Notes: generated by a model not told the origin, from the sequence alone. A DNA stretch of 41,300 bases from Candidatus Saccharimonadales bacterium (GCA_040900055.1 JBBDZU010000002.1:84425-125724); one strand, 5' to 3'. Shown: positions 1,727 to 39,326, counted from the stretch's first letter. Translations and numbers: made by a program.

Positions 1727-2670
1727 ATAGCCCCAAAGTAACTGTTTTGATGCCTGTTTATAATGGCCAAAGATATCTGAAACAGGCAATCGAAGGTATT
1801 CTTAATCAAACCTATAAAGATTTTGAGTTTCTGATTATTGACGACGGCTCAACAGACAAAAGTAAATCAATAATCAGGCGTTATGCCAAAAAGGACCCGC
1901 GCATACGGTTAATCAGCCGACCAAATAAAGGATTGGTTGCAACTCTCAACGAAGGCCTCGATAAAGCTAGCGGAGAATATATCGCCCGCATGGACTGCGA
2001 CGACATTTCTCTAAAAAAACGCCTAAAAATTGAGGTGGAATATTTAGACGCTAATCCGGACGTTGCCTTAGTTGGAAGCAATTACACAATCGTTGACGAA
2101 CATGGAAAGCGGTTAGTCGATACTAATGTTTTTACGCACCCTGATGACCTCAAGCTTTGTTTAGTAACATGCAACCAATACGGCCACGGCTCAGTCATGA
2201 TTAGGAAAAGCGCTCTAAATAAAGTTGGAAACTATGATAAAGGCGTTGGCCATCTTGAAGATTATGACCTATGGATTCGCATAAGCCATGTGGCCAAAGT
2301 CGCGAACATCGAAGAGCCGCTATATCAATGGCGTAAAACAGCCGACAGCATCACGGGGGCTAACCTAGAGCTACAAATACAACAAACCTTTGCGCGGCGC
2401 GACCGAGAGTTTGAATATTTCTTAAAGAATAAAAAAGATTACCGTATTTTTTCCATCCACCCTAGCGGCTATGATTACGGACGGCGTAAATCGGTACTTT
2501 ATCGTGACTTAGCATACCTTTATCAGCAAAAGGGGATGCGCTGGGGCGCGGTCAAAATGTTGTTACTTGCGATAATTTTTAAACCGAGGGTTAAACGCAA
2601 TTATTACTATCTAATCGCTCTTTTATTGCGTAAATCCTGGCTAAGTAAATGGCAGTTCGAGTTTCAATGA
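1723..2670 (+). CDS. Glycosyltransferase family 2
   Basis: VTVLMPVYN, IIDDGSTD, ARMDCDD, EDYDLW; ATG at 1723 overlaps the upstream stop (ATGA). Confidence 0.92.
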   Translation: MNSPKVTVLMPVYNGQRYLKQAIEGILNQTYKDFEFLIIDDGSTDKSKSIIRRYAKKDPRIRLISRPNKGLVATLNEGLDKASGEYIARMDCDDISLKKRLKIEVEYLDANPDVALVGSNYTIVDEHGKRLVDTNVFTHPDDLKLCLVTCNQYGHGSVMIRKSALNKVGNYDKGVGHLEDYDLWIRISHVAKVANIEEPLYQWRKTADSITGANLELQIQQTFARRDREFEYFLKNKKDYRIFSIHPSGYDYGRRKSVLYRDLAYLYQQKGMRWGAVKMLLLAIIFKPRVKRNYYYLIALLLRKSWLSKWQFEFQ

Positions 2671-3650
2671 AAAAACAGCCGACAGTCGACGTTATAATCC
2701 CCGCTTACAACGGCTTGCCCTATTTGAAGGCGGCTGTGGATAGTGTATTGGCTCAAAGTTACGACAACTTCAACATCTATGTAATCGATGACGGCTCAAC
2801 AGACAAAGGCGCGACCGAAAAATACGTTAAAGGCATTAAAGATAAGCGGGTTAAGTACTTCCGAAAAGCAAACGGTGGCCAGGCCACGGCTCGTAACTAC
2901 GGCATCGAAGTTTCTAGTGCGCCGTTTGTTACATTCCTTGATTCGGACGACGTTTGGAATGAAGATAAACTCCAAAAACAAGTTGATTATATACGCCGCA
3001 ACCCGCAGTTCGGCATGGTTTACGGCTATCACACGCTTGTTAATGAGAAGGGCCAGACTGTCGGCAGGGTGAATTACAATCGTGAAGGCCACCTGTTTAA
3101 CTATCTGCTGAGTGGTAACAAAATTTCCGGAAGCGGCAGTATGGTAATGGTGAAGCGCGCTGTACTACAAGATGTCGGTCTATTCCGCGAAGACTTTTTG
3201 ATTGGCGAAGATTGGGAAATGTGGCTCAGGGTGGCCCAAAAATACGAGATTGGCTGTGTCCATAGGTATTTGGCAGAACTGAGGTTACTACCAGAAGGCA
3301 TGCAAAAGGACTACTTAAAAATGGCCAGAGGGTTGGAATATATGCTGCCAATCATGCTCAGGGAGTTTAAACTTGGCCCTCGGGGTAAGGCCCGGCTACG
3401 CGGTGCCTGTCTCTACGACGCATCGGTTTATTATTTTTTAGGCGGCGACCGTGCTAGAGCCCGCTCCACTTTCTTGAAAGTGATGGCCTATAACCCTCGA
3501 CGTATAAAAATCCGACGTGATTTATTGTTTATTTATGCAAGGGCTTTGTTTGGCAATGAAACCTTGAGAAAATTCAGGCGAGCTGTCTCACCAGCCTACC
3601 GCCGTCGCGAGCGCGAGTACAGGCTAGAGCAGCAAAAGAAGGGACATTAA
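2667..3650 (+). CDS. Glycosyltransferase family 2
   Basis: VIIPAYN, VIDDGSTD, FLDSDD, GEDWEMW; ATGA overlap at 2667. Confidence 0.92.
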   Translation: MKKQPTVDVIIPAYNGLPYLKAAVDSVLAQSYDNFNIYVIDDGSTDKGATEKYVKGIKDKRVKYFRKANGGQATARNYGIEVSSAPFVTFLDSDDVWNEDKLQKQVDYIRRNPQFGMVYGYHTLVNEKGQTVGRVNYNREGHLFNYLLSGNKISGSGSMVMVKRAVLQDVGLFREDFLIGEDWEMWLRVAQKYEIGCVHRYLAELRLLPEGMQKDYLKMARGLEYMLPIMLREFKLGPRGKARLRGACLYDASVYYFLGGDRARARSTFLKVMAYNPRRIKIRRDLLFIYARALFGNETLRKFRRAVSPAYRRREREYRLEQQKKGH

Positions 3651-3658
3651 TAAATATC

Positions 3659-4570
3659 ATGCCAAGCGCCAAAAAACCCTTTGTCAGCGTTGGGATACCA
3701 ACTCTAGGCCGTGGGCAGATACTGCTTAATACCATTCATATGGTTCTTGCTCAAGGCTATGAGCTTTTTGAAGTTATTGTCGCTGATCAATCTTTGGAAC
3801 ATAATAAAAAATTTCTCGCTAAGCTTAAGGGGCTCAAAACAGACCGGCGATTACGGTATTTTTTTGTTGCACCGAAAAGTTTGCCGGCTGCCCGGAACTT
3901 CATATTAAAGAAAGCCAAGGGCGAGTTAATTATCTTTATTGATGATGACGTGCAATTGAAAAAGGACTTTATCAGTACCCATGTACACGAACATCTCAGA
4001 CACCCAGAGGTCTCAGTTATTGCCGGACGGGTTGAACAAAAAGGCCTGCCATTATCTGACTCCCCGCTTTATTTTAATAAGTACGGCCTACCGCAAGGTA
4101 CTTTTAACTGTCCTAATAGCGGGCCGTGCGAAGACTTCCCTGGCGGCAACCATAGTGTGAGAACGTCCGTGCTCAAAAAAATTGGCGGTTACCATACGGC
4201 TTATAAAAAGGATGCTGTCCGCGAAGAAAGCGATACCAGCCACCGCCTGCATGAAGCCGGATTCAATATGTTTTATTCGGCCGAGGCAAGCGCGGTACAT
4301 CTGTCAGTCGGTCACGGCGGTTCCCGTATATATAAGGTACAGTTTGATAGCCTCCGTTTTTATATAAATGACCTTCTGTTTATGCTACGCACCGTTAGGC
4401 TCCGCTACTTGCCGATTTCTATTTTTAAGCGTGCCCGTATTTATACTGGCGGACCATTCGGTCGCCGCTTTAAACGGGCGGGGATATTTTTAGCCGGTTT
4501 TATTACCGCCCTATGGCTTCTAATATTTGAGCGGAAAAGCTACCCGGCGCGAGAAGTAAGGGGAAGGTAG
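3659..4570 (+). CDS. Glycosyltransferase family 2
   Basis: VSVGIPTLGR, AARN, IIFIDDDV, GGN, EESD motifs. Confidence 0.88.
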   Translation: MPSAKKPFVSVGIPTLGRGQILLNTIHMVLAQGYELFEVIVADQSLEHNKKFLAKLKGLKTDRRLRYFFVAPKSLPAARNFILKKAKGELIIFIDDDVQLKKDFISTHVHEHLRHPEVSVIAGRVEQKGLPLSDSPLYFNKYGLPQGTFNCPNSGPCEDFPGGNHSVRTSVLKKIGGYHTAYKKDAVREESDTSHRLHEAGFNMFYSAEASAVHLSVGHGGSRIYKVQFDSLRFYINDLLFMLRTVRLRYLPISIFKRARIYTGGPFGRRFKRAGIFLAGFITALWLLIFERKSYPAREVRGR

Positions 4571-4571
4571 C

Positions 4572-5717
4572 ATGAAGCGGATAGGTATTGAGGGGAGCCC
4601 TTTCTTTGGCAGCCCGACCGGTATCGGGCAGTACGCCAGGCGTCTAATAACTGCTGCCTCAAAGCTGGGCTCCGATACCCATTTCGAGATTATCCGCCAC
4701 TGGCTTCCGTTTAAGGAATTAAGGCCACCAATCGCACCGAACCAGCGGCTGTCGTATCGGTTGGTCAAGTGGTTCCCGCCAGCCGTCTACTTCCAAACCT
4801 TCAAACGCCTGGGTTGGTTCCTGCCATACGACGCTATAGCGTTAAGACGTTACGACGCTATGCTCTTTTTCAACTTCGTGGTTTTTCCGGTCCGTAAGAA
4901 AGTAAAGACGATAGCCTTCATACACGACCTGTCCTTCATCCATTTTAGTGAGTATACCCAAGTTAAGAACCTGACTTACATGCAAAAATTCGTCCCGTAC
5001 TCTATTGACCGTGCCTCACACATTATCACGATCTCTCAAAGCACTAAAAACCAGATTGTCGAGCACTATAAGGTCAGCCCTGGCAAGATCAGCATCATCA
5101 CTCCAGCTATAAACCATTCCCAGTTCTACCAGCGTCCCATGCATGAGATCTCTGAAATCCGAAAAAAATACAAACTGCCGACCAAATATATACTTTATGC
5201 AAGCACGTTAGAGCCGCGCAAGAACATAGAGGGAATACTGCGCTCCTATTCAGCACTCGGCGACGATCTAAAAATGGAATACGGCTTGGTGCTGGCCGGC
5301 GGTAAAGGCTGGAAGGATGAATCTATTTTCAAGACAATAGATGAATTGCGAAGCGCTGGCGAAAATATTATCACCACCGGTTATGTACCCGACGAGGACC
5401 TGCCGGCCATCTACAGTGGGGCGACCCTATTCGTTTACCCGTCCTTCTACGAAGGTTTCGGCATCCCGCTGCTTGAAGCCATGGCCTGTGGCGTCCCAGT
5501 AATTACATCTAACAACACCTCCCTCCCTGAAGTAGTCGGGAGTGCCGCGATATTGGTTGAGGCTGGGGATACGACCGCCCTATCCAAAGCTATCAACAAG
5601 GTTTTGAATAACCCCGAGCGGGCTAATCTATTAAGAGAAAAGGGTCTAGCTCAGGCCAAAAAATTCAGCTGGGAGAAATCAGCAAAGAAGTTGATGGCAG
5701 TACTGGAAAAACTCTAG
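4572..5717 (+). CDS. Glycosyltransferase family 4 (mannosyltransferase-like)
   Basis: [37 protein letters not shown]. Confidence 0.92.
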
Positions 5718-6785: not shown

Positions 6786-7880
6786 ATGTTTAGAGTTGTT
6801 ATTGACGGGCGGGAGTCGGGTACAAGTACTGGCAGATATATTGATAAGTTGATTGAGTACTTGCACAAGCTGCAGCCGGAATTTGAGATCATAGTTTTAA
6901 CAAAAAAAGACCGGATCGAGTATCTAAGAACTGTAGCGCCGTCATTTAGGATAATTGGCTCAAGATACAAGGCCTTTAGCTCTGGCGAGCAGTTTGGCCT
7001 ACGTAGGCAGATCCGGCGGCTTAAGCCGGACTTAGTTCATTTTGGCATGACTCAGCAGCCAGTTCTATATTTTGGTAAAACTATAACCACGGTTCACGAT
7101 CTAACTACTGCCCGCTTTTACAACCCGGCTAAAAACCGTCTGGTTTTTAAGTCTAAGCAATGGGTTTACCGTGTCGTAATCTTTATAGCAGCCCATAAAT
7201 CCAAAATGGTGATAACAGCCAGCCAATATGTAAAAGATGATTTAGTGAATTTCGCCCGCATTAAGCCGCAAAAAATAACTGTTACCTACGAGGCAGCCGA
7301 TAAAATTACCGAAGCGGCCAAACCGGTACCTGGCTTACAGCCCAAATCATTCTTAATGTATGTTGGGCGGCCGCTGCCGCATAAAAATCTTAAAAGGCTG
7401 ATGGAAGCTTATTCCATAGTCCATCACGCCAAACCGACGCTTAAGCTGGCCTTAGTTGGCAAAAGCGACAAGCTGTACGATCGCCACCAGCAATGGGCAA
7501 AAAAGCAAGGAATCGAGGGGGTAGTCTTTACCGGTTTTGTAACTGAAGGTCAGTTGCGCTGGCTATACGAAAATGCCGCAGCCTACGTGTTCCCTTCGCT
7601 TTCTGAGGGTTTTGGGCTCCCGGGGCTTGAGGCTATGGTCCACGGCTGCCCGGTGATTGCAAGCAAAGCTACCTGCCTTCCGGAAGTATATGGCCAGGCT
7701 GCCGAATATTTTGATCCGTTAGATATACACGATATGGTCGAGGCTATCCGAAGAGTGGTTGATAATCCAACTCGAGTCCAAGAATTGATACGCAAAGGCG
7801 ATCGTCAGGTAGAAAAATATTCTTGGGCAAAGATGGCTAAAGAAACCCTCGAAGTTTACAAACAAGTTTTGAAATCTTAG
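6786..7880 (+). CDS. Glycosyltransferase family 4
   Basis: STGRY, TVHDL, HKN, PSLSEGFGLPGLEAMVHGCPV. Confidence 0.92.
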   Translation: MFRVVIDGRESGTSTGRYIDKLIEYLHKLQPEFEIIVLTKKDRIEYLRTVAPSFRIIGSRYKAFSSGEQFGLRRQIRRLKPDLVHFGMTQQPVLYFGKTITTVHDLTTARFYNPAKNRLVFKSKQWVYRVVIFIAAHKSKMVITASQYVKDDLVNFARIKPQKITVTYEAADKITEAAKPVPGLQPKSFLMYVGRPLPHKNLKRLMEAYSIVHHAKPTLKLALVGKSDKLYDRHQQWAKKQGIEGVVFTGFVTEGQLRWLYENAAAYVFPSLSEGFGLPGLEAMVHGCPVIASKATCLPEVYGQAAEYFDPLDIHDMVEAIRRVVDNPTRVQELIRKGDRQVEKYSWAKMAKETLEVYKQVLKS

Positions 7881-7903
7881 TTTCTTTTCCAAAAAACAAT
7901 TCT

Positions 7904-8096
7904 CACACTTTGGACGGCAAAGTGTGGCAAACCGCCGGGCTACGTTCAAAAACAGATTGAATCTAAACTCCTAAGAAGCTGCGCCAAAACAGTGACAAGC
8001 ATCCCCTCGCTTTATCTTTAAGGAGGCTCGGGGCAACGTTTCGCTTTACTCAGCTCTTAGTTTGTTCATCTTCATCTGTCTTGAGCCGATGCCCGG
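7904..8096 (+). repeat. Structured ~190-nt repeat element, copy A (divergent)
   Basis: Hairpin CACACTTTG-gacgg-CAAAGTGTG, linker GCAAACC, long rod closed by CCGGGC/GCCCGG, with TCAAAAACAGAT/ATCTGTCTTGA and CTAAGAAGCTG/CAGCTCTTAG, and a GACAAGC core. Confidence 0.65.
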
Positions 8097-8106
8097 ACCC
8101 GTTAAG

Positions 8107-8310
8107 TGGGCATGTAGGCGAGCCTGAGCCATGCACGTCAAAAGCATCAACAGATTCGAGCCGAGGACCAGTCTGAAGGAATGAAGGCCGCCTGCCTGCC
8201 GGCAGGCAGGCTTGCGTTCCGCAGGCTTGTTTGTGCGCTTTTACAAGTGCTAGCATCAGCCGAGCCTACGCCCAGAGCTTTTGGGCTACTTTTGTCGGCA
8301 CAAAAGTAGC
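8107..8310 (-). repeat. Structured ~200-nt repeat element, copy B, carrying a nested 22-bp palindrome
   Basis: Minus strand: GCTACTTTTG-tgccga-CAAAAGTAGC, CCAAAAG linker, TGGGC-GTAGGC...GCCTAC-GCCCA rod; core CTGCGGAACG-CAAGC...GTCCTCG shared with copies C and D. Confidence 0.75.
8190..8211. repeat. Perfect palindrome GCCTGCCTGCCGGCAGGCAGGC (short REP-like element)
   Basis: Self-complementary 22-mer; related copies at 19236-19256 and 22226-22252. Confidence 0.85.
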
Positions 8311-8347
8311 AAAACATTTGCTTCTTGGAAAAAGAAGTCGGTTTAGT

Positions 8348-8367
8348 TACTTTGGCTGTCCAAAGTA
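8348..8367 (-). repeat. Isolated 5' hairpin of the structured repeat (fragment E); may double as the jag terminator
   Basis: Minus strand TACTTTGG-acag-CCAAAGTA-ACTAAACCG resembles the start of copy A (CACTTTGGACGGCAAAGTGTGGCAAACCG); 6 bp downstream of the jag stop. Confidence 0.55.
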
Positions 8368-8373
8368 GAAGAA

Positions 8374-8847
8374 TTATTCTTCTGCACTGGGTTTTAGGAC
8401 GACGTGCCTGTCTCTACCTTCGCCAATTGATTCGGTTTCGACGCCGTACTCTGAGGCCGTTTTGTGGACCACGCGGCGGTCGGCAGCGCTCATTGGTGGC
8501 AGGTCTTTTGGTTTTTTAGTATCTTTAACTTCCTTAAACCACTCCTTGGCTTGATTAGCTAAACGGTCGGCCCGCTGTTTTTTGTAGCCGGCTACGTCTA
8601 TATTGACCCGTGTATGGCTAAACTCTTTATTCTTAAGCGCAGAGCTAACCGTGTACTGCAGCGCCCGCATGGTATCGCCGCGCTGGCCAATTAAAAAACC
8701 ATTTAAATGGGTCGATGGGATGTCTAGCTCTATAACCTCGTCGTCTTCGGTAGTAGCGTAAACATCGGTGTTAAGGCCAAAAAAAGACAGCAGGTCTTCT
8801 AGGTATTTTTTGGCAAATAATATAGCCTCGTCACGCGATTTGTTCAT
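8374..8847 (-). CDS. jag: RNA-binding protein Jag/KhpB/EloR, short KH + R3H form
   Basis: LIGQRGDTMRALQY (KH), MSAADRRVVH (R3H), SIGEGRDRHVV; lies downstream of yidC. Confidence 0.93.
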   Translation of the reverse strand: MNKSRDEAILFAKKYLEDLLSFFGLNTDVYATTEDDEVIELDIPSTHLNGFLIGQRGDTMRALQYTVSSALKNKEFSHTRVNIDVAGYKKQRADRLANQAKEWFKEVKDTKKPKDLPPMSAADRRVVHKTASEYGVETESIGEGRDRHVVLKPSAEE

Positions 8848-9761
8848 CGCCTCTTCCTTTTACGGGAACGGTTGCGCGAGGATTTGGACTTGCCGGACTT
8901 GCCCTTTTTTGGCTTGGTGGCTTTTTCTTCTTCCGGAGTAGCTACAATCGCTACAGCCTCCTCGGCGTCGGCTCGTAAAATTTTAGTCTGCTGGACAAAG
9001 GCCACAAAGCTGCTGGTTAACCAGTAAAGTGGCAGGGCGGCTGGAAAGTTTAGGCCAAAAATAAACACTAAAAGCGGTATTAGAATCAGCATGCTCCTGC
9101 CGACCGCGGCGTTGACTTCTTCCTGGTCAGCGGCCTTGCCCTGGCTGGCAGAACTTAAAATTGAGCGCAGACTGCGGGCCTCTTTGGGGGCCGGCATAAG
9201 TTGTTTACTTTGGTAATACTGCACAATGGCGCTTAAAGCCACTAAAATCAAGGCCGGCACATAAACCCCCTCAACACCTATAGCCTTGCGGCCCAAATCG
9301 ACTATGCCAAATAAACTGCTGTCAAATTGCAGGATGTTGGTTTCTAGCGATTTTAGCCAAGACAGGTCATGAAGTAAGGGGTAGGAAAAGTCGATTATTT
9401 CTTGGGGCTTGTCGATTAGGCGCTTAACGGCAAAGTAAAGGCCAATAAAAATCGGTAACTGAATTAAAACTACACCCAGTGAAGCGAAAGGGTTAATCTC
9501 TCGAGCTTTATAAAGTTCCATGGTCAGCTTGGACTGTTTTTGTCTGTCGCCGGCGGCAGAGGCCTTTATCTTTTTGAGCTCGGGGGCTAGTGACCGCATA
9601 GCTTTGGCGTGGTGGAGCTGTTTTTTTACCAGCGGCCACATTAGTAGCCTGATAACTACCGTAAATAAAATTATGGCCAGACCAAAGTTATGGCCAGGTA
9701 TTAAGCTGTAAATTAAGACCAGCAAATTAAAAATTGGCTGAACGATCAGGGTCGTAAACAT
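8844..9761 (-). CDS. yidC: Membrane protein insertase YidC/Oxa1
   Basis: NFGLAIILFTVVIRLLMWPL, LIQLPIFIGLY, PAALPLYW; canonical synteny. Confidence 0.95.
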   Translation of the reverse strand: MFTTLIVQPIFNLLVLIYSLIPGHNFGLAIILFTVVIRLLMWPLVKKQLHHAKAMRSLAPELKKIKASAAGDRQKQSKLTMELYKAREINPFASLGVVLIQLPIFIGLYFAVKRLIDKPQEIIDFSYPLLHDLSWLKSLETNILQFDSSLFGIVDLGRKAIGVEGVYVPALILVALSAIVQYYQSKQLMPAPKEARSLRSILSSASQGKAADQEEVNAAVGRSMLILIPLLVFIFGLNFPAALPLYWLTSSFVAFVQQTKILRADAEEAVAIVATPEEEKATKPKKGKSGKSKSSRNRSRKRKRR

Positions 9762-9803
9762 CTAAAAATCGGCCCTTCCTTTGCTTTTTACTATAACACG
9801 GGG

Positions 9804-10163
9804 TTAGCGGTCGGGCTTGTCAAAGATGCCGGCTTGTTTGAACAACCTTTTTAACTCAGTCACCAGGCTTTGGCCCGACTCATCCTTACCTTGCCCCGGG
9901 AAAACCGTTGCTACAATGTCGAAAGGGCTGGCAATATCATCTTCAAATTGACGGACGGCTTCATAGAACCGCCTTCTGATGCGGTTTCGGGCTACTGCCG
10001 ACTTGTCGACTTTCCGGCTAACCACTACAGCTAAGCGGTAGCTAGAGCGCTTGGGGTTAGACATACTTTTAACCGAAAAAAACGGCCCCCGGACAGTTTG
10101 GCCGTGACGATAAACTGGCCTTAGCGAGTTTATGCCGCGAAAACGATGAGAGCGCGAAATCAT
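9804..10163 (-). CDS. rnpA: Ribonuclease P protein component
   Basis: RLAVVVSRKVDKSAVARNRIRRR (RNR motif). Confidence 0.95.
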   Translation of the reverse strand: MISRSHRFRGINSLRPVYRHGQTVRGPFFSVKSMSNPKRSSYRLAVVVSRKVDKSAVARNRIRRRFYEAVRQFEDDIASPFDIVATVFPGQGKDESGQSLVTELKRLFKQAGIFDKPDR

Positions 10164-10209
10164 AGAATCAGTTTATAGGTTATGGTTGGTAGTTTATAGT
10201 GTGCTCCCT

Positions 10210-10395
10210 TCGGACTTGAGAAAACAGAGGGAGCGAGTGACGAGAAGTCGGCAGAATCGAGGACTGTCCTCTCCGCCAGCTGGCAGAGAGGACCGCTTGT
10301 CGTTCCGCAGAATTCACCGGCTTTAAGGAGTGAGCAACCATCTTAAGTTTTCGAATGTCCGAGAGTTTGGCGATACCTTTACGGTTAAAGGTATC
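10210..10395 (-). repeat. Structured ~190-nt repeat element, copy C
   Basis: Reverse complement matches 33117-33307 with identical blocks of 30, 24 and 16 nt; hairpin GATACCTTTA/TAAAGGTATC; rod closed by TCGGAC/GTCCGA. Confidence 0.9.
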
Positions 10396-10416
10396 AAAAA
10401 ATGTTAAGGTATAACT

Positions 10417-10554
10417 ATGCCAAAACGGACTTATCAACCTAAAAAACAGCGCCGTGCCCGGCGACATGGCTTTTTATCAAGAATGGCTTCTAAAGACGGC
10501 CGCAATATCCTAAAACGCCGCCGGCAAAAAGCCCGTTCGAAACTAACTGTTTAG
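10417..10554 (+). CDS. rpmH: 50S ribosomal protein L34 (45 aa; absent from the ORF track)
   Basis: Manual translation [45 protein letters not shown]. Confidence 0.97.
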
Positions 10555-32636: not shown

Positions 32637-33050
32637 CTAAGTTTTTTTAGAAATCTTGGAAGTGCAGTGCATGCAGCGAGTAGCCTTTGTAGGAATTTTA
32701 CCCAGGCAATAAGGGCATTTGCGAGTAGTGGCCTCGCCAGTATCCTTACTGCTGGCAAAACGCTCACTTATCCGGTTAATGGGCTGGACTACCAGGAAAA
32801 ATATCACGGCGGCTACAATCAAAAAGCTTAATAAGTTGTTAAGCAGGTCCCCATAATTGAATGTGCTGCCACCAATAGAAAAAGCCAGTTTTGAGAATTT
32901 TTCGCCGTGATAGAAAAGCTCCATTAAGGGGTTAACAACATCTCTAACAAAAGCATTTACCACACTGGTAAAGGCAGCGCCAATCACAATACCAACGGCT
33001 AAATCAACGACATTGCCGCGCAGGATAAATTTTCTAAACTCGTTAAACAT
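32637..33050 (-). CDS. mscL: Large-conductance mechanosensitive channel with C-terminal zinc ribbon
   Basis: EFRKFILRGNVVDLAVGIVIGAAF, YGDLL; tail CPYC...CMHC. Confidence 0.95.
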   Translation of the reverse strand: MFNEFRKFILRGNVVDLAVGIVIGAAFTSVVNAFVRDVVNPLMELFYHGEKFSKLAFSIGGSTFNYGDLLNNLLSFLIVAAVIFFLVVQPINRISERFASSKDTGEATTRKCPYCLGKIPTKATRCMHCTSKISKKT

Positions 33051-33116
33051 AACTAAAGCTTCGCTTAAATTAAATCAGCAATTACGCCCATCAGCAACAA
33101 TCAGTAGAAAAATTTT

Positions 33117-33307
33117 GATACCTTTAGCTGTAAAGGTATCGCCAAACTCTCGGACATTCAAAAAGCTAGATGGTCGCTCAGCACTCGTCATAAGTGAATC
33201 TGCGGAACGACAAGCGGTCCTCCTCCGCTGGACAGCGGACTTCGGACAGTCCTCGATTCAGAAAACTGATGGCTCGTTCTTCGCTCACTCTGTTTTTTCA
33301 AGTCCGA
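33117..33307 (+). repeat. Structured ~190-nt repeat element, copy D
   Basis: Inverted homolog of 10210-10395 with the same hairpin-linker-rod architecture. Confidence 0.9.
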
Positions 33308-33404
33308 ACCTTTATTAATGATTCGGTAGCCTGTGTTAGATATATTACTGCTGAAAGCCATACACAAAATGTACGGTGTATTTAAGATTTAAGGAGGAGA
33401 TACG

Positions 33405-33758
33405 ATGGCCGAAGTAACACGTACGCGCGAAACTGTGACAGAAGACCGTCCAGTAGTAGCAAACGATCACGGGCGGAATGTAGCCGATAGGATTATTTGG
33501 TTTATTGCGGGCATTATTTTGATTCTGCTGGCGCTACGGTTTTTGCTATCGCTTTTGGGCGCCAACCGAGAAAACGCTTTTGCCGACTTTATTTACGATG
33601 CTTCCCAGCCATTTGTGTCGCCATTTTTTGGCTTGTTTAACTACAACGTAGTGGACTACGGAGTGTCACGGCTGGAGTTTTACACCTTATTTGCCATGTT
33701 AATGTACGCCGTTATAGCCTGGGGGCTATCGTCGCTGATTAACCTTAACCGGCGCTAA
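33405..33758 (+). CDS. YggT-like membrane protein
   Basis: AAGGAGGAG RBS; LALRFLLSLLGAN...FADFIYDASQPFVSPFFGLF. Confidence 0.8.
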   Translation: MAEVTRTRETVTEDRPVVANDHGRNVADRIIWFIAGIILILLALRFLLSLLGANRENAFADFIYDASQPFVSPFFGLFNYNVVDYGVSRLEFYTLFAMLMYAVIAWGLSSLINLNRR

Positions 33759-39141: not shown

Positions 39142-39201
39142 CTTGTTCCCAGTATATCAGAGGCCAACCGGCAAAAAGGCAGCGCTTAAACTTTCATATG
39201 A

Positions 39202-39260
39202 AAACAGGCACAAATCAACCCGCCTTTCGTAGTGAAAAGGCCGATTTTTAGTGCCTGTTT
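39202..39260. repeat. Long imperfect hairpin between tsaD and valS
   Basis: AAACAGGCAC/GTGCCTGTTT, AAATC/GATTT, GCCTTT/AAAGGC. Confidence 0.6.
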
Positions 39261-39326
39261 CCCAATTTTTGTTTTCAGATTTAGCATAACAACTCGGCAA
39301 TTGGGCGGCAATGAAAGGAGACAAAA

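Follow-up and report, generated by a model that had tools for sequence, protein, structure and literature searches.

The hairpin-plus-rod elements found in a 41,300-nt stretch of Candidatus Saccharimonadales bacterium DNA (the whole of which is referred to here as the window) are best explained as members of one family of interspersed, non-coding, modular repeats, the fold of which is clearly kept by selection through compensating changes. Searches of the genome that holds the window (585,679 bp in 7 contigs, 95% complete) using blastn, nhmmer and a covariance model, designated here as R1, revealed 16 rod copies at 12 loci, which take up about 0.5% of the genome; 12 copies were returned by nhmmer at E<=1e-18, and this recurrence is far above chance. 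The original prediction had counted four copies in 41 kb, a number that is correct for the window and is exceeded by the genome-wide total. The DnaA protein of this genome clusters with those of Candidatus Saccharimonadota. The R1 model, which was used for all model searches, is based on six type-1 copies from the same genome. The 16 rods were assigned to seven copies of type 1 (closing stem CTCGGAC/GTCCGAG), four of type 2 (GGGCGTAGGC.../...GCCTACATGCCC) and five of type 3 (CCGGGC/GCCCGG).

All four window copies, designated here as A to D, are located between ORFs. Copy A (type 1; 10207..10395, minus strand; 196.1 bits with R1) consists of a 5' hairpin at 10372-10395, the linker GCCAAAC and a rod closed by CTCGGAC/GTCCGAG, and is flanked by the divergent genes rnpA (-) and rpmH (+), with dnaA adjoining (gene assignments here and below by Pfam). 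Copy B (type 1; 33117..33310, plus strand; 205.3 bits) comprises a 5' hairpin at 33117-33140 and the core segments CTGCGGAACGACAAGC (33200-33215) and GGACAGTCCTCGATTC (33244-33259), and lies between the divergent mscL (-) and a YGGT-family gene (+). The folding of both copies was shown to be much stronger than that of shuffled sequence (z -5.26 for copy A, which has an MFE of -73.7 kcal/mol, and z -2.95 for copy B). Copy C (type 3; 7904..8099, plus strand; closing stem CCGGGC/GCCCGG; 26.2 bits) aligns with four other type-3 copies and is positioned 23 nt 3' of the stop codon of a GT4 glycosyltransferase gene in the same orientation, with an imperfect T/A mini-hairpin (7881-7897) between gene and copy. 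Copy D (type 2; 8104..8310, minus strand; 41.4 bits) has the long closing stem GGGCGTAGGC.../...GCCTACATGCCC, is arranged tail to tail with copy C and shares the orientation of jag/khpB, so that copies C and D together sit between the convergent GT4 glycosyltransferase and jag/khpB genes.

The 30-, 24-, 16- and 11-nt blocks which had been described as shared between copies A and B were indeed found to be identical and in their expected places, and the three claimed 5' hairpins, the CAAA-type linkers and the closing stems TCGGAC/GTCCGA, TGGGC/GCCCA and CCGGGC/GCCCGG are all present. The junction CTGCGGAACG(A)CAAGC...GTCCTCG, which had been put forward as conserved throughout, is retained in copies A, B and D, whereas copy C has only part of it. 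As a separate observation on the surroundings of copy A, this genome (window 9804-10551) and 3 of 29 relatives (L053, L054 and L056) have rpmH in inverted orientation with respect to rnpA-yidC-jag, the usual rpmH-rnpA order being observed in the other 26.

The repeat unit is composed of zero or one mini-hairpin (CTTCTTTT..AAAGAAG followed by CAAA..TTTT), one to three head hairpins and an irregular rod of ~150 nt. Each head hairpin has a 10-bp stem (NNNACYTTT-GCCG-AAARGTNNN) followed by GCCAAA or GCAAAA, while in the rod the 5' arm bears an A-tract, the 3' arm bears a T-tract and a 9x2 internal loop (CUGCGGAAC..CAAGC / AGUCCUCG) is conserved. Consensus sequences drawn from 41 and 56 full copies begin with a T-run, the head hairpin gccACyTTnn-gCCG-nnAArGTngc, the linker gcaAAaCT and the closing stem (P1), and continue with the A-tract helix gAAAAc/GTTTTc and variable helices. 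These lead to the conserved core, in which a variable tip hairpin is enclosed by GtGaanCTGCGGaACgnCnagC and aGTCCTCGnttc, with ~9 unpaired bases on the 5' strand vs 2 on the 3' strand.

The modular nature of the 5' part is exemplified by the region upstream of copy D, where a mini-hairpin module (CTTCTT-loop-AAGAAG, then CAAATGTTTT; 8321..8337, minus strand), also found upstream of many copies in other genomes, is accompanied by a solo head-hairpin module (TCTACTTTGG-acag-CCAAAGTAAC followed by TAAACC; 8346..8369, minus strand) that begins 4 nt past the jag stop codon (8374-8376). Mini-hairpins in the style of the head hairpin precede many copies (e.g. gttcttttccaaagaac + CAAA + N2-4 + TTTT), and some copies possess one or two additional head hairpins. 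Because 24 of the 27 pattern matches to hairpin-CAAA modules in the genome adjoin elements, these modules are regarded as element parts rather than as general terminators. Heads were also shown to be exchanged between body types, as a copy on contig C1 combines the head of copy D with a type-1 body, and insertions are tolerated at the tip of the rod, where copy D and three other copies contain a 22-nt GC palindrome (GCCTGCCTGCCGGCAGGCAGGC; 8190..8211 in copy D, no strand assigned). This palindrome is itself a separate tiny repeat with exact 21-22-nt matches on contigs C2, C3 and C6; in its 20-22-nt form it is dispersed over window 8190-8211, C2:135530, C2:178384, C2:128099, C3:4313, C3:40331 and C6:6172, and it occupies the tip loops of several rod copies.

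Several further features were noted during the inspection of individual copies. Short A/T-rich word repeats (TTTATAG / CTATAAAC; tandem CCAAACT) lie beside several copies (window 10166-10205, C1:6590-6616, C3:3943-3990 and C6:3158-3214), and are also present upstream of rnpA in relatives that do not carry the element. Among the sequencing runs listed, the window was matched by one DNA sample, the probable source, and by no RNA run; contigs derived from this sample displayed breaks at repeats and cross-matches between copies, with no joined (empty-site) form seen. A K-turn reading of the 9x2 loop was rejected, as inspection by eye revealed no tandem G.A pairs, and the element was not retained as an RNase P minihelix mimic (U-run, G1 hairpin, GCCA tail), the CCA being unconserved and replaced by GCAAAA, GTAAAA or ACAAAA in many copies. 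A GC-rich in-frame insert in the uracil-DNA glycosylase gene (C2:158470-158680) folds strongly and possesses neither head hairpin nor core, and represents a different sequence.

A structural variant, designated here as the S-type, is represented by nine copies from four or five genera (at L021, L025, L093, L098, L100, L102, L108, L112 and L119). It lacks the side hairpin and, compared with the 6-9-bp closing stem of the common form, possesses a 12-21-bp basal or terminal stem of related sequence (GCCACC-GAAAAT...ATTTTG-GTGGC, i.e. GCCACC/GGTGGC plus an A/T helix). Its outer bases are conserved (..GCGCTC / TCGCTTAGTC), with TC...TC flanks in 8 of the 9 copies. The S-type fits selection on overall shape. 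A simple circular permutation of the hairpin type was rejected as its origin, since the strand polarity of the head hairpin mismatches a plain joining of the S-type ends, and the two forms are reported here as topological variants only.

The proposal that a single-stranded fold is under selection was borne out by covariation in two separate sets of copies, with both alignments fitted to the R1 structure and the copies related to each other. In the first set (45 copies), 92.7% of cells formed standard pairs, compared with 67.6% after column shuffling, and double changes were observed at 47 of 48 pairs. The second set, which consists of 59 further copies from other loci, yielded 90.3% vs 59.5%, with double changes at all 48 pairs. 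None of 500 shuffles matched the observed values in either set, and pairing fell to 38-51% in both when partner columns were slid by 1-3 positions. The closing stem P1 covaries in both sets even though it lies outside the internal U-tract.

Evidence as to which strand is functional was found to be weak and mixed, and both RNA and ssDNA are possible, as the first reading of this region had stated. Over all model pairs, 172 G.U and 123 A.C were counted, a ratio of 1.4:1 on alignments fitted to the modelled strand; in typical RNA families this ratio is far higher. The antisense strand was predicted to fold more stably in 77 of 95 copies (mean -68.0 vs -62.9 kcal/mol), and the modelled strand is C-rich and G-poor, which by itself biases in silico folding towards the opposite strand. 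The tract helix, whose A residues stand in the 5' arm and whose U residues stand in the 3' arm, has an identical polarity when read on either strand.

In agreement with the earlier failure to match the element to a named family, a scan of the window against Rfam 15 at gathering thresholds returned four tRNAs only, and scans of 7800-10500 and 33000-33450 at E<=10 yielded chance-level matches of 10-23 bits, compared with gathering scores of 40-80. A ribozyme-like motif, which had been suggested as one option, found no counterpart among Rfam ribozymes at E<=10, and identities as riboswitch, 6S, SRP, Y RNA, HEARO or tracrRNA were likewise discarded for want of Rfam support. No published description of a hairpin-plus-rod family was found in a full-text search of the main text of articles, and blastn detected no similar DNA in phage and plasmid collections. 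Exact matches to the 16-mer CTGCGGAACGACAAGC in genome and viral contigs from unrelated phyla were dismissed as chance, the pattern being too short; R1 detected the element at none of 38 viral loci bearing this 16-mer.

The repeat is widespread and restricted to the class. As R1 is a narrow model, the following counts represent lower bounds: matches were obtained in at least 34 of 60 relatives, including at least 25 of 36 genomes of the same family, in at least 15 of 150 other genomes of the class, and in at least 1 of 150 genomes of a phylum sample, where the match was weak. Among 80 yidC loci retrieved from metagenomes, the best of which showed 74% identity and none of which represents a strain-level relative, one (L129) carries the element, behind jag. 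In another spacer of the window (39142-39326, 185 nt), a different hairpin (GAAACAGGCAC...GTGCCTGTTTYC) is present; the orthologous spacer bears a hairpin-plus-rod copy in two relatives (L012 and L039).

Genomic positions were analysed for 104 copies on the basis of crude ORF calls, which assigned 40 copies to convergent, 9 to divergent, 35 to tandem co-oriented and 15 to tandem anti-oriented settings, 5 being unassignable. The excess of convergent over divergent positions has a binomial p of 9e-6, and that of co-oriented over anti-oriented copies in tandem regions a p of 0.007. None of 58 copies in one subset lies within a longer ORF, and in a second subset only short ORFs overlap part of a copy. 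A co-oriented ORF ends within -30..+150 nt of the head hairpin in 77 of the 104 copies, with a median stop-to-head distance of 28 nt, 26 copies within 10 nt and a second cluster at 22-29 nt, corresponding to the length of one extra module. In this genome, arrays including their extra modules start no more than 8 nt past the neighbour's stop codon at 8 of 12 loci. The element is intergenic, prefers the 3' ends of genes and lands or survives directly behind stop codons, a proximity that could merely reflect where insertions are tolerated.

The genes upstream of these 77 copies were shown to represent 55 singleton families and 10 small clusters of unrelated housekeeping genes, the latter including rpsJ, L25, gyrA, ribonucleotide reductase, htpX, RNase H, an ABC-2 permease, jag and khpA; groEL is also among the housekeeping genes with an element behind them. 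Downstream genes displayed no orientation preference. Since about 12 of roughly 600 gene ends in the genome carry an array, the repeat does not constitute a general punctuation system. Moreover, some copies are so close to the following gene that no promoter would fit in between, and two copies are situated behind rpsJ; the elements consequently cannot be strong terminators. Tail-to-tail pairs are common, being observed at window 7904-8310, C2:178313-178753 and C3:3999-4405, and at L081, L088, L092, L104, L105 and L117.

The explanation that is tentatively favoured, with a probability that falls somewhat short of even, is that of a structured interspersed repeat of the bcr1/ERIC/BOX kind that acts as a folded mRNA 3' barrier in the tail of the upstream transcript. 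On this view, most copies would be part of the upstream mRNA, either as its 3' tail or as an intercistronic spacer, and the hairpin array and rod may there slow 3' exonucleases and dampen read-through, by analogy with the role proposed for REP, ERIC and bcr-type repeats. Such a benefit would explain the retention of the repeat in a deletion-prone 586-kb genome. Against a 3'-tail role stand the 15 anti-oriented copies out of 50 in tandem regions, the small share of gene ends with an array (about 12 of roughly 600), the lack of promoter room and the rpsJ positions noted above, the covariation of P1 outside the internal U-tract, the greater stability of the antisense strand (77 of 95 copies), the low G.U/A.C ratio of 1.4:1 and the position of copies A and B, which are located between divergent genes and are thus part of no 3' UTR; because of this placement, these two copies are atypical for the 3'-tail reading.

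The suggestion that the element is a repeat or a non-autonomous element is supported by the gain and loss of sites and by lineage-specific amplification. At the rnpA-rpmH site a copy is present in this genome and in 0 of 29 relatives, and some sites filled in relatives are empty here (L013 and L014). Other sites are shared, namely htpX with L027, nrd with L021, L025, L092 and L109, jag with L073 and khpA with L080, and occupation recurs across genera at htpX, nrd, jag, khpA, rpsJ, gyrA and L25. The most similar pairs within a genome share 95% and 94% (linked copies) or 88% and 85% (unlinked copies) identity, while the top pair between genomes shares 84%. Two composite type-3/type-2 loci on different contigs (C2:178340-178590 and C3:~4010-4260) share a tract of ~250 nt at 100% identity, bordered by diverged element sequence and then by unrelated flanks, which is a gene-conversion pattern; gene conversion explains both the likeness of copies within genomes and the swapped heads. 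The family is thus shown to multiply within lineages, to be gained and lost at sites between genera and to exchange sequence by gene conversion.

These dynamics are also what would be expected if the repeat were a purely selfish ssDNA element, the main rival reading and a possible though on balance unlikely alternative in which hairpin and rod would form the substrate of an HUH/Y1-like or similar enzyme (cf. REPIN-RAYT and IS200/IS605), the fold would be kept only in the active source lineage and the gene-end position would mark where insertions survive. Site turnover between genera, the closer likeness within than between genomes, the frequent tail-to-tail pairs, reminiscent of REPIN doublets, and the weak G.U/A.C asymmetry with good folding on both strands all agree with this alternative. 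Target-site duplications, which ssDNA transposition would not produce, were not found, as the longest word shared by the two flanks averaged 4.62 nt, compared with 4.53 nt in mismatched flanks (93 copies, 30-nt windows; a 2-nt duplication is below the resolution of this comparison). Conversely, no identical dispersed copies exist, the best unlinked pair sharing 88% identity apart from the ~250-nt conversion tract, the same gene ends are occupied repeatedly across genera in deletion-prone genomes, and the S-type keeps the shape and not the ends.

The selfish alternative would further call for an enzyme, and the earlier observation that no transposase or reverse transcriptase is nearby holds for the families searched (Y1_Tnp, TnpB, IS110 and RVT_1). 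Despite its 16 copies, the 95%-complete genome yielded no match to Y1_Tnp (PF01797), TnpB (Cas12f1-like_TNB, PF07282) or IS110 (PF01548). Y1_Tnp-like genes are present in 17 of 60 relatives, which would favour the alternative, but their presence does not track that of the element (both, 12; Y1 only, 6; element only, 22; neither, 20), and the Y1 genes examined bear their own, different flanking hairpins, which are unrelated to the head hairpin. Each of these ~205-aa Y1_Tnp-like genes lies between perfect hairpins of identical sequence (e.g. CAGGGACAATCCCTG-caa-CAGGGATTGTCCCTG; L202 1224-1983, L204 1280-1967 and L203 1931-1963) in a RAYT/IS200-like arrangement, with up to seven per genome.

The single RVT_1 match of the genome is located on another contig (C7) as part of a diversity-generating retroelement with its own TR/VR and bAvd, and 1 of the 16 copies lies within about 2 kb of this gene; the element accordingly differs from a retron msr-msd or a DGR template, as the sole RVT_1 gene serves the retroelement. 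The retroelement is complete (L070, i.e. C7:5500-13500, positions 2427-5172), and its GC-rich target gene of 290 aa carries the variable repeat 3'-terminally (about 3170-3296). The template repeat is found at about 3620-3740, while bAvd, encoded on the minus strand, occupies 3780-4109 and the reverse transcriptase 4123-5169. A hairpin-plus-rod copy is present at 2069-2234 of the same locus, just upstream of the retroelement.

It is rather unlikely that the family is more than a tolerated repeat and represents a true functional RNA class, a portable 3'-end RNA module of Saccharibacteria that has spread without a transposase and whose internal loop has KhpA/KhpB as candidate readers. The first hairpin would here lie within the footprint of the terminating ribosome, such that the end of translation may be coupled to the way in which the transcript folds, is protected or is processed. 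The conserved internal loop would be read by a conserved factor, the KH-domain pair KhpA/KhpB being a candidate, in keeping with the repeated presence of the element at the khpA and khpB genes themselves. Spread would proceed through recombination and gene conversion in naturally competent cells.

Independent multi-copy small-RNA genes with their own promoters, acting in trans or as a protein sponge (e.g. for KhpA/KhpB), are a quite unlikely explanation. Strong covariation and the sequence-conserved asymmetric internal loop would suit such genes, copies A and B, being situated between divergent genes, would need a promoter of their own, and copies are found behind khpA and jag/khpB both here and in distant genomes (L073, L080 and L129). 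However, only some 4 of the 104 copies show the khp association, and recurrence is just as frequent at other housekeeping genes. The upstream regions contain only the T-run and optional hairpin modules, with no conserved -35/-10 at a fixed distance, no terminator-like T-run follows the 3' end, and the heads directly adjoin the stop codons of upstream genes; the window contains no excess of promoter-like sites (23 vs 23.9 in shuffles).

A function as two-way transcription terminator or insulator is very unlikely. Read on either strand, the rod core has an A-tract on its 5' side and a U-tract on its 3' side, such that polymerases arriving from both sides would meet a hairpin followed by a U-run. 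This arrangement is conserved without swapping in 33-36 of ~40 and 42-43 of ~55 copies, and both the preference for convergent over divergent settings (40 vs 9) and the lack of enrichment of canonical terminator-like sites in 20 kb of the window (24 vs 25.2 in shuffles) are in line with such a role. Nevertheless, the U-run is short (4-6 U) and the AGA/UCU stem base that precedes it is weak, and the covariation of P1, which lies beyond the tract, implies selection on full-length molecules. Copies also occur inside likely operons, e.g. behind rpsJ, and tail-to-tail pairs would be redundant if a single copy worked in both directions. Set beside a canonical intrinsic terminator, the element displays a conserved internal A-tract/U-tract pair, a weak stem base and a covarying closing stem beyond the U-tract, with no T-run past its end. 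A gene-specific cis-regulator (riboswitch or leader) of the downstream rnpA and yggT genes, for which the location of copies A and B 43 and 94 nt upstream of these genes in the same orientation would speak, is close to refuted by the empty rnpA site in all 29 relatives, the 55 singleton families among the upstream genes of 77 copies and the missing orientation preference of downstream genes.

Comparison with known systems places the family among structured intergenic repeats. REP, BIME and REPIN sequences are extragenic hairpin repeats found preferentially at gene 3' ends and between convergent genes, where they make up inverted doublets and mosaic arrays of modules, and REP has been proposed to stabilise mRNA 3' ends. 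Inverted, tail-to-tail doublets are met in the present family too; its unit of ~190 nt with a conserved asymmetric loop, however, contrasts with the 20-40 nt of REP, and it differs from REPIN-RAYT systems in that no Y1 (RAYT) gene is present in this genome and the Y1 genes of relatives are flanked by unrelated hairpins. ERIC/IRU, Correia (NEMIS/CREE) and RUP elements are imperfect palindromes of 100-160 bp with rod folds, situated in transcribed intergenic DNA and MITE-like in character, with clear terminal inverted repeats and TA-type duplications in Correia and RUP. The common form described here instead combines its short closing stem of 6-9 bp with a side hairpin and has no detected duplication, only the S-type possessing a long terminal stem (12-21 bp).

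The BOX elements of Streptococcus pneumoniae are likewise modular, with a variable number of the middle module among boxA, boxB and boxC and a stable predicted fold; they share no sequence or module homology with the present family, which consists of a hairpin array and a rod. Rickettsia palindromic elements (RPE) form rods in a reduced genome and are inserted in frame inside protein genes, which was observed for none of the 58 copies assessed here. Multiple copies and presence/absence differences are shared with classical MITEs, the target-site duplication not having been found; among about 200 model hits, no ORF-bearing long-insert version was detected. The omega RNA of IS200/IS605 and the bridge RNA of IS110 differ in that this genome has no TnpB or IS110 gene and the element has no HEARO match in Rfam.

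A close likeness exists to bcr1, a repeat of ~155 bp in the Bacillus cereus group for which compensatory changes at the RNA level have been described (Delihas 2011, PMC3184786), and to bcr repeats more generally, which a second report places inside UTRs and operon spacers (PMC3446304). bcr1 (and bcr2/3) and the present family have in common a length of about 155-190 bp, multiple intergenic copies, a strain-variable distribution and a compensated fold (PMC3184786, PMC3446304). In contrast, bcr1 possesses 5-bp flanking direct repeats, whereas no target duplication was found here; there is no sequence likeness, and transcription, which has been demonstrated for bcr repeats, would be in line with the position and orientation of the present copies. 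Modular head hairpins in variable number and the abutting of stop codons are traits of the present family when compared with bcr1. The hairpin-plus-rod family itself is therefore classified as new, while its kind, the structured intergenic repeat, is already known from bcr1-type repeats; what is unusual is that hairpins form a modular array set directly against stop codons, the topological variant, and the fact that target duplications and the tested transposases were not found.

According to a transcriptome paper on a cultured Saccharibacteria strain, none of the small RNAs reported there was validated. The genomes of Saccharibacteria are tiny and gene-dense, yet an element of ~190 nt is kept in up to 16 copies, with all its helices covarying. 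The element would thereby offer a handle on how transcripts are finished and stabilised in these bacteria, or represent a mobile element that moves without the usual enzymes. Furthermore, assembly breaks at element hairpins and recombination tracts between distant loci matter for the reconstruction of genomes of uncultured bacteria from metagenomes.
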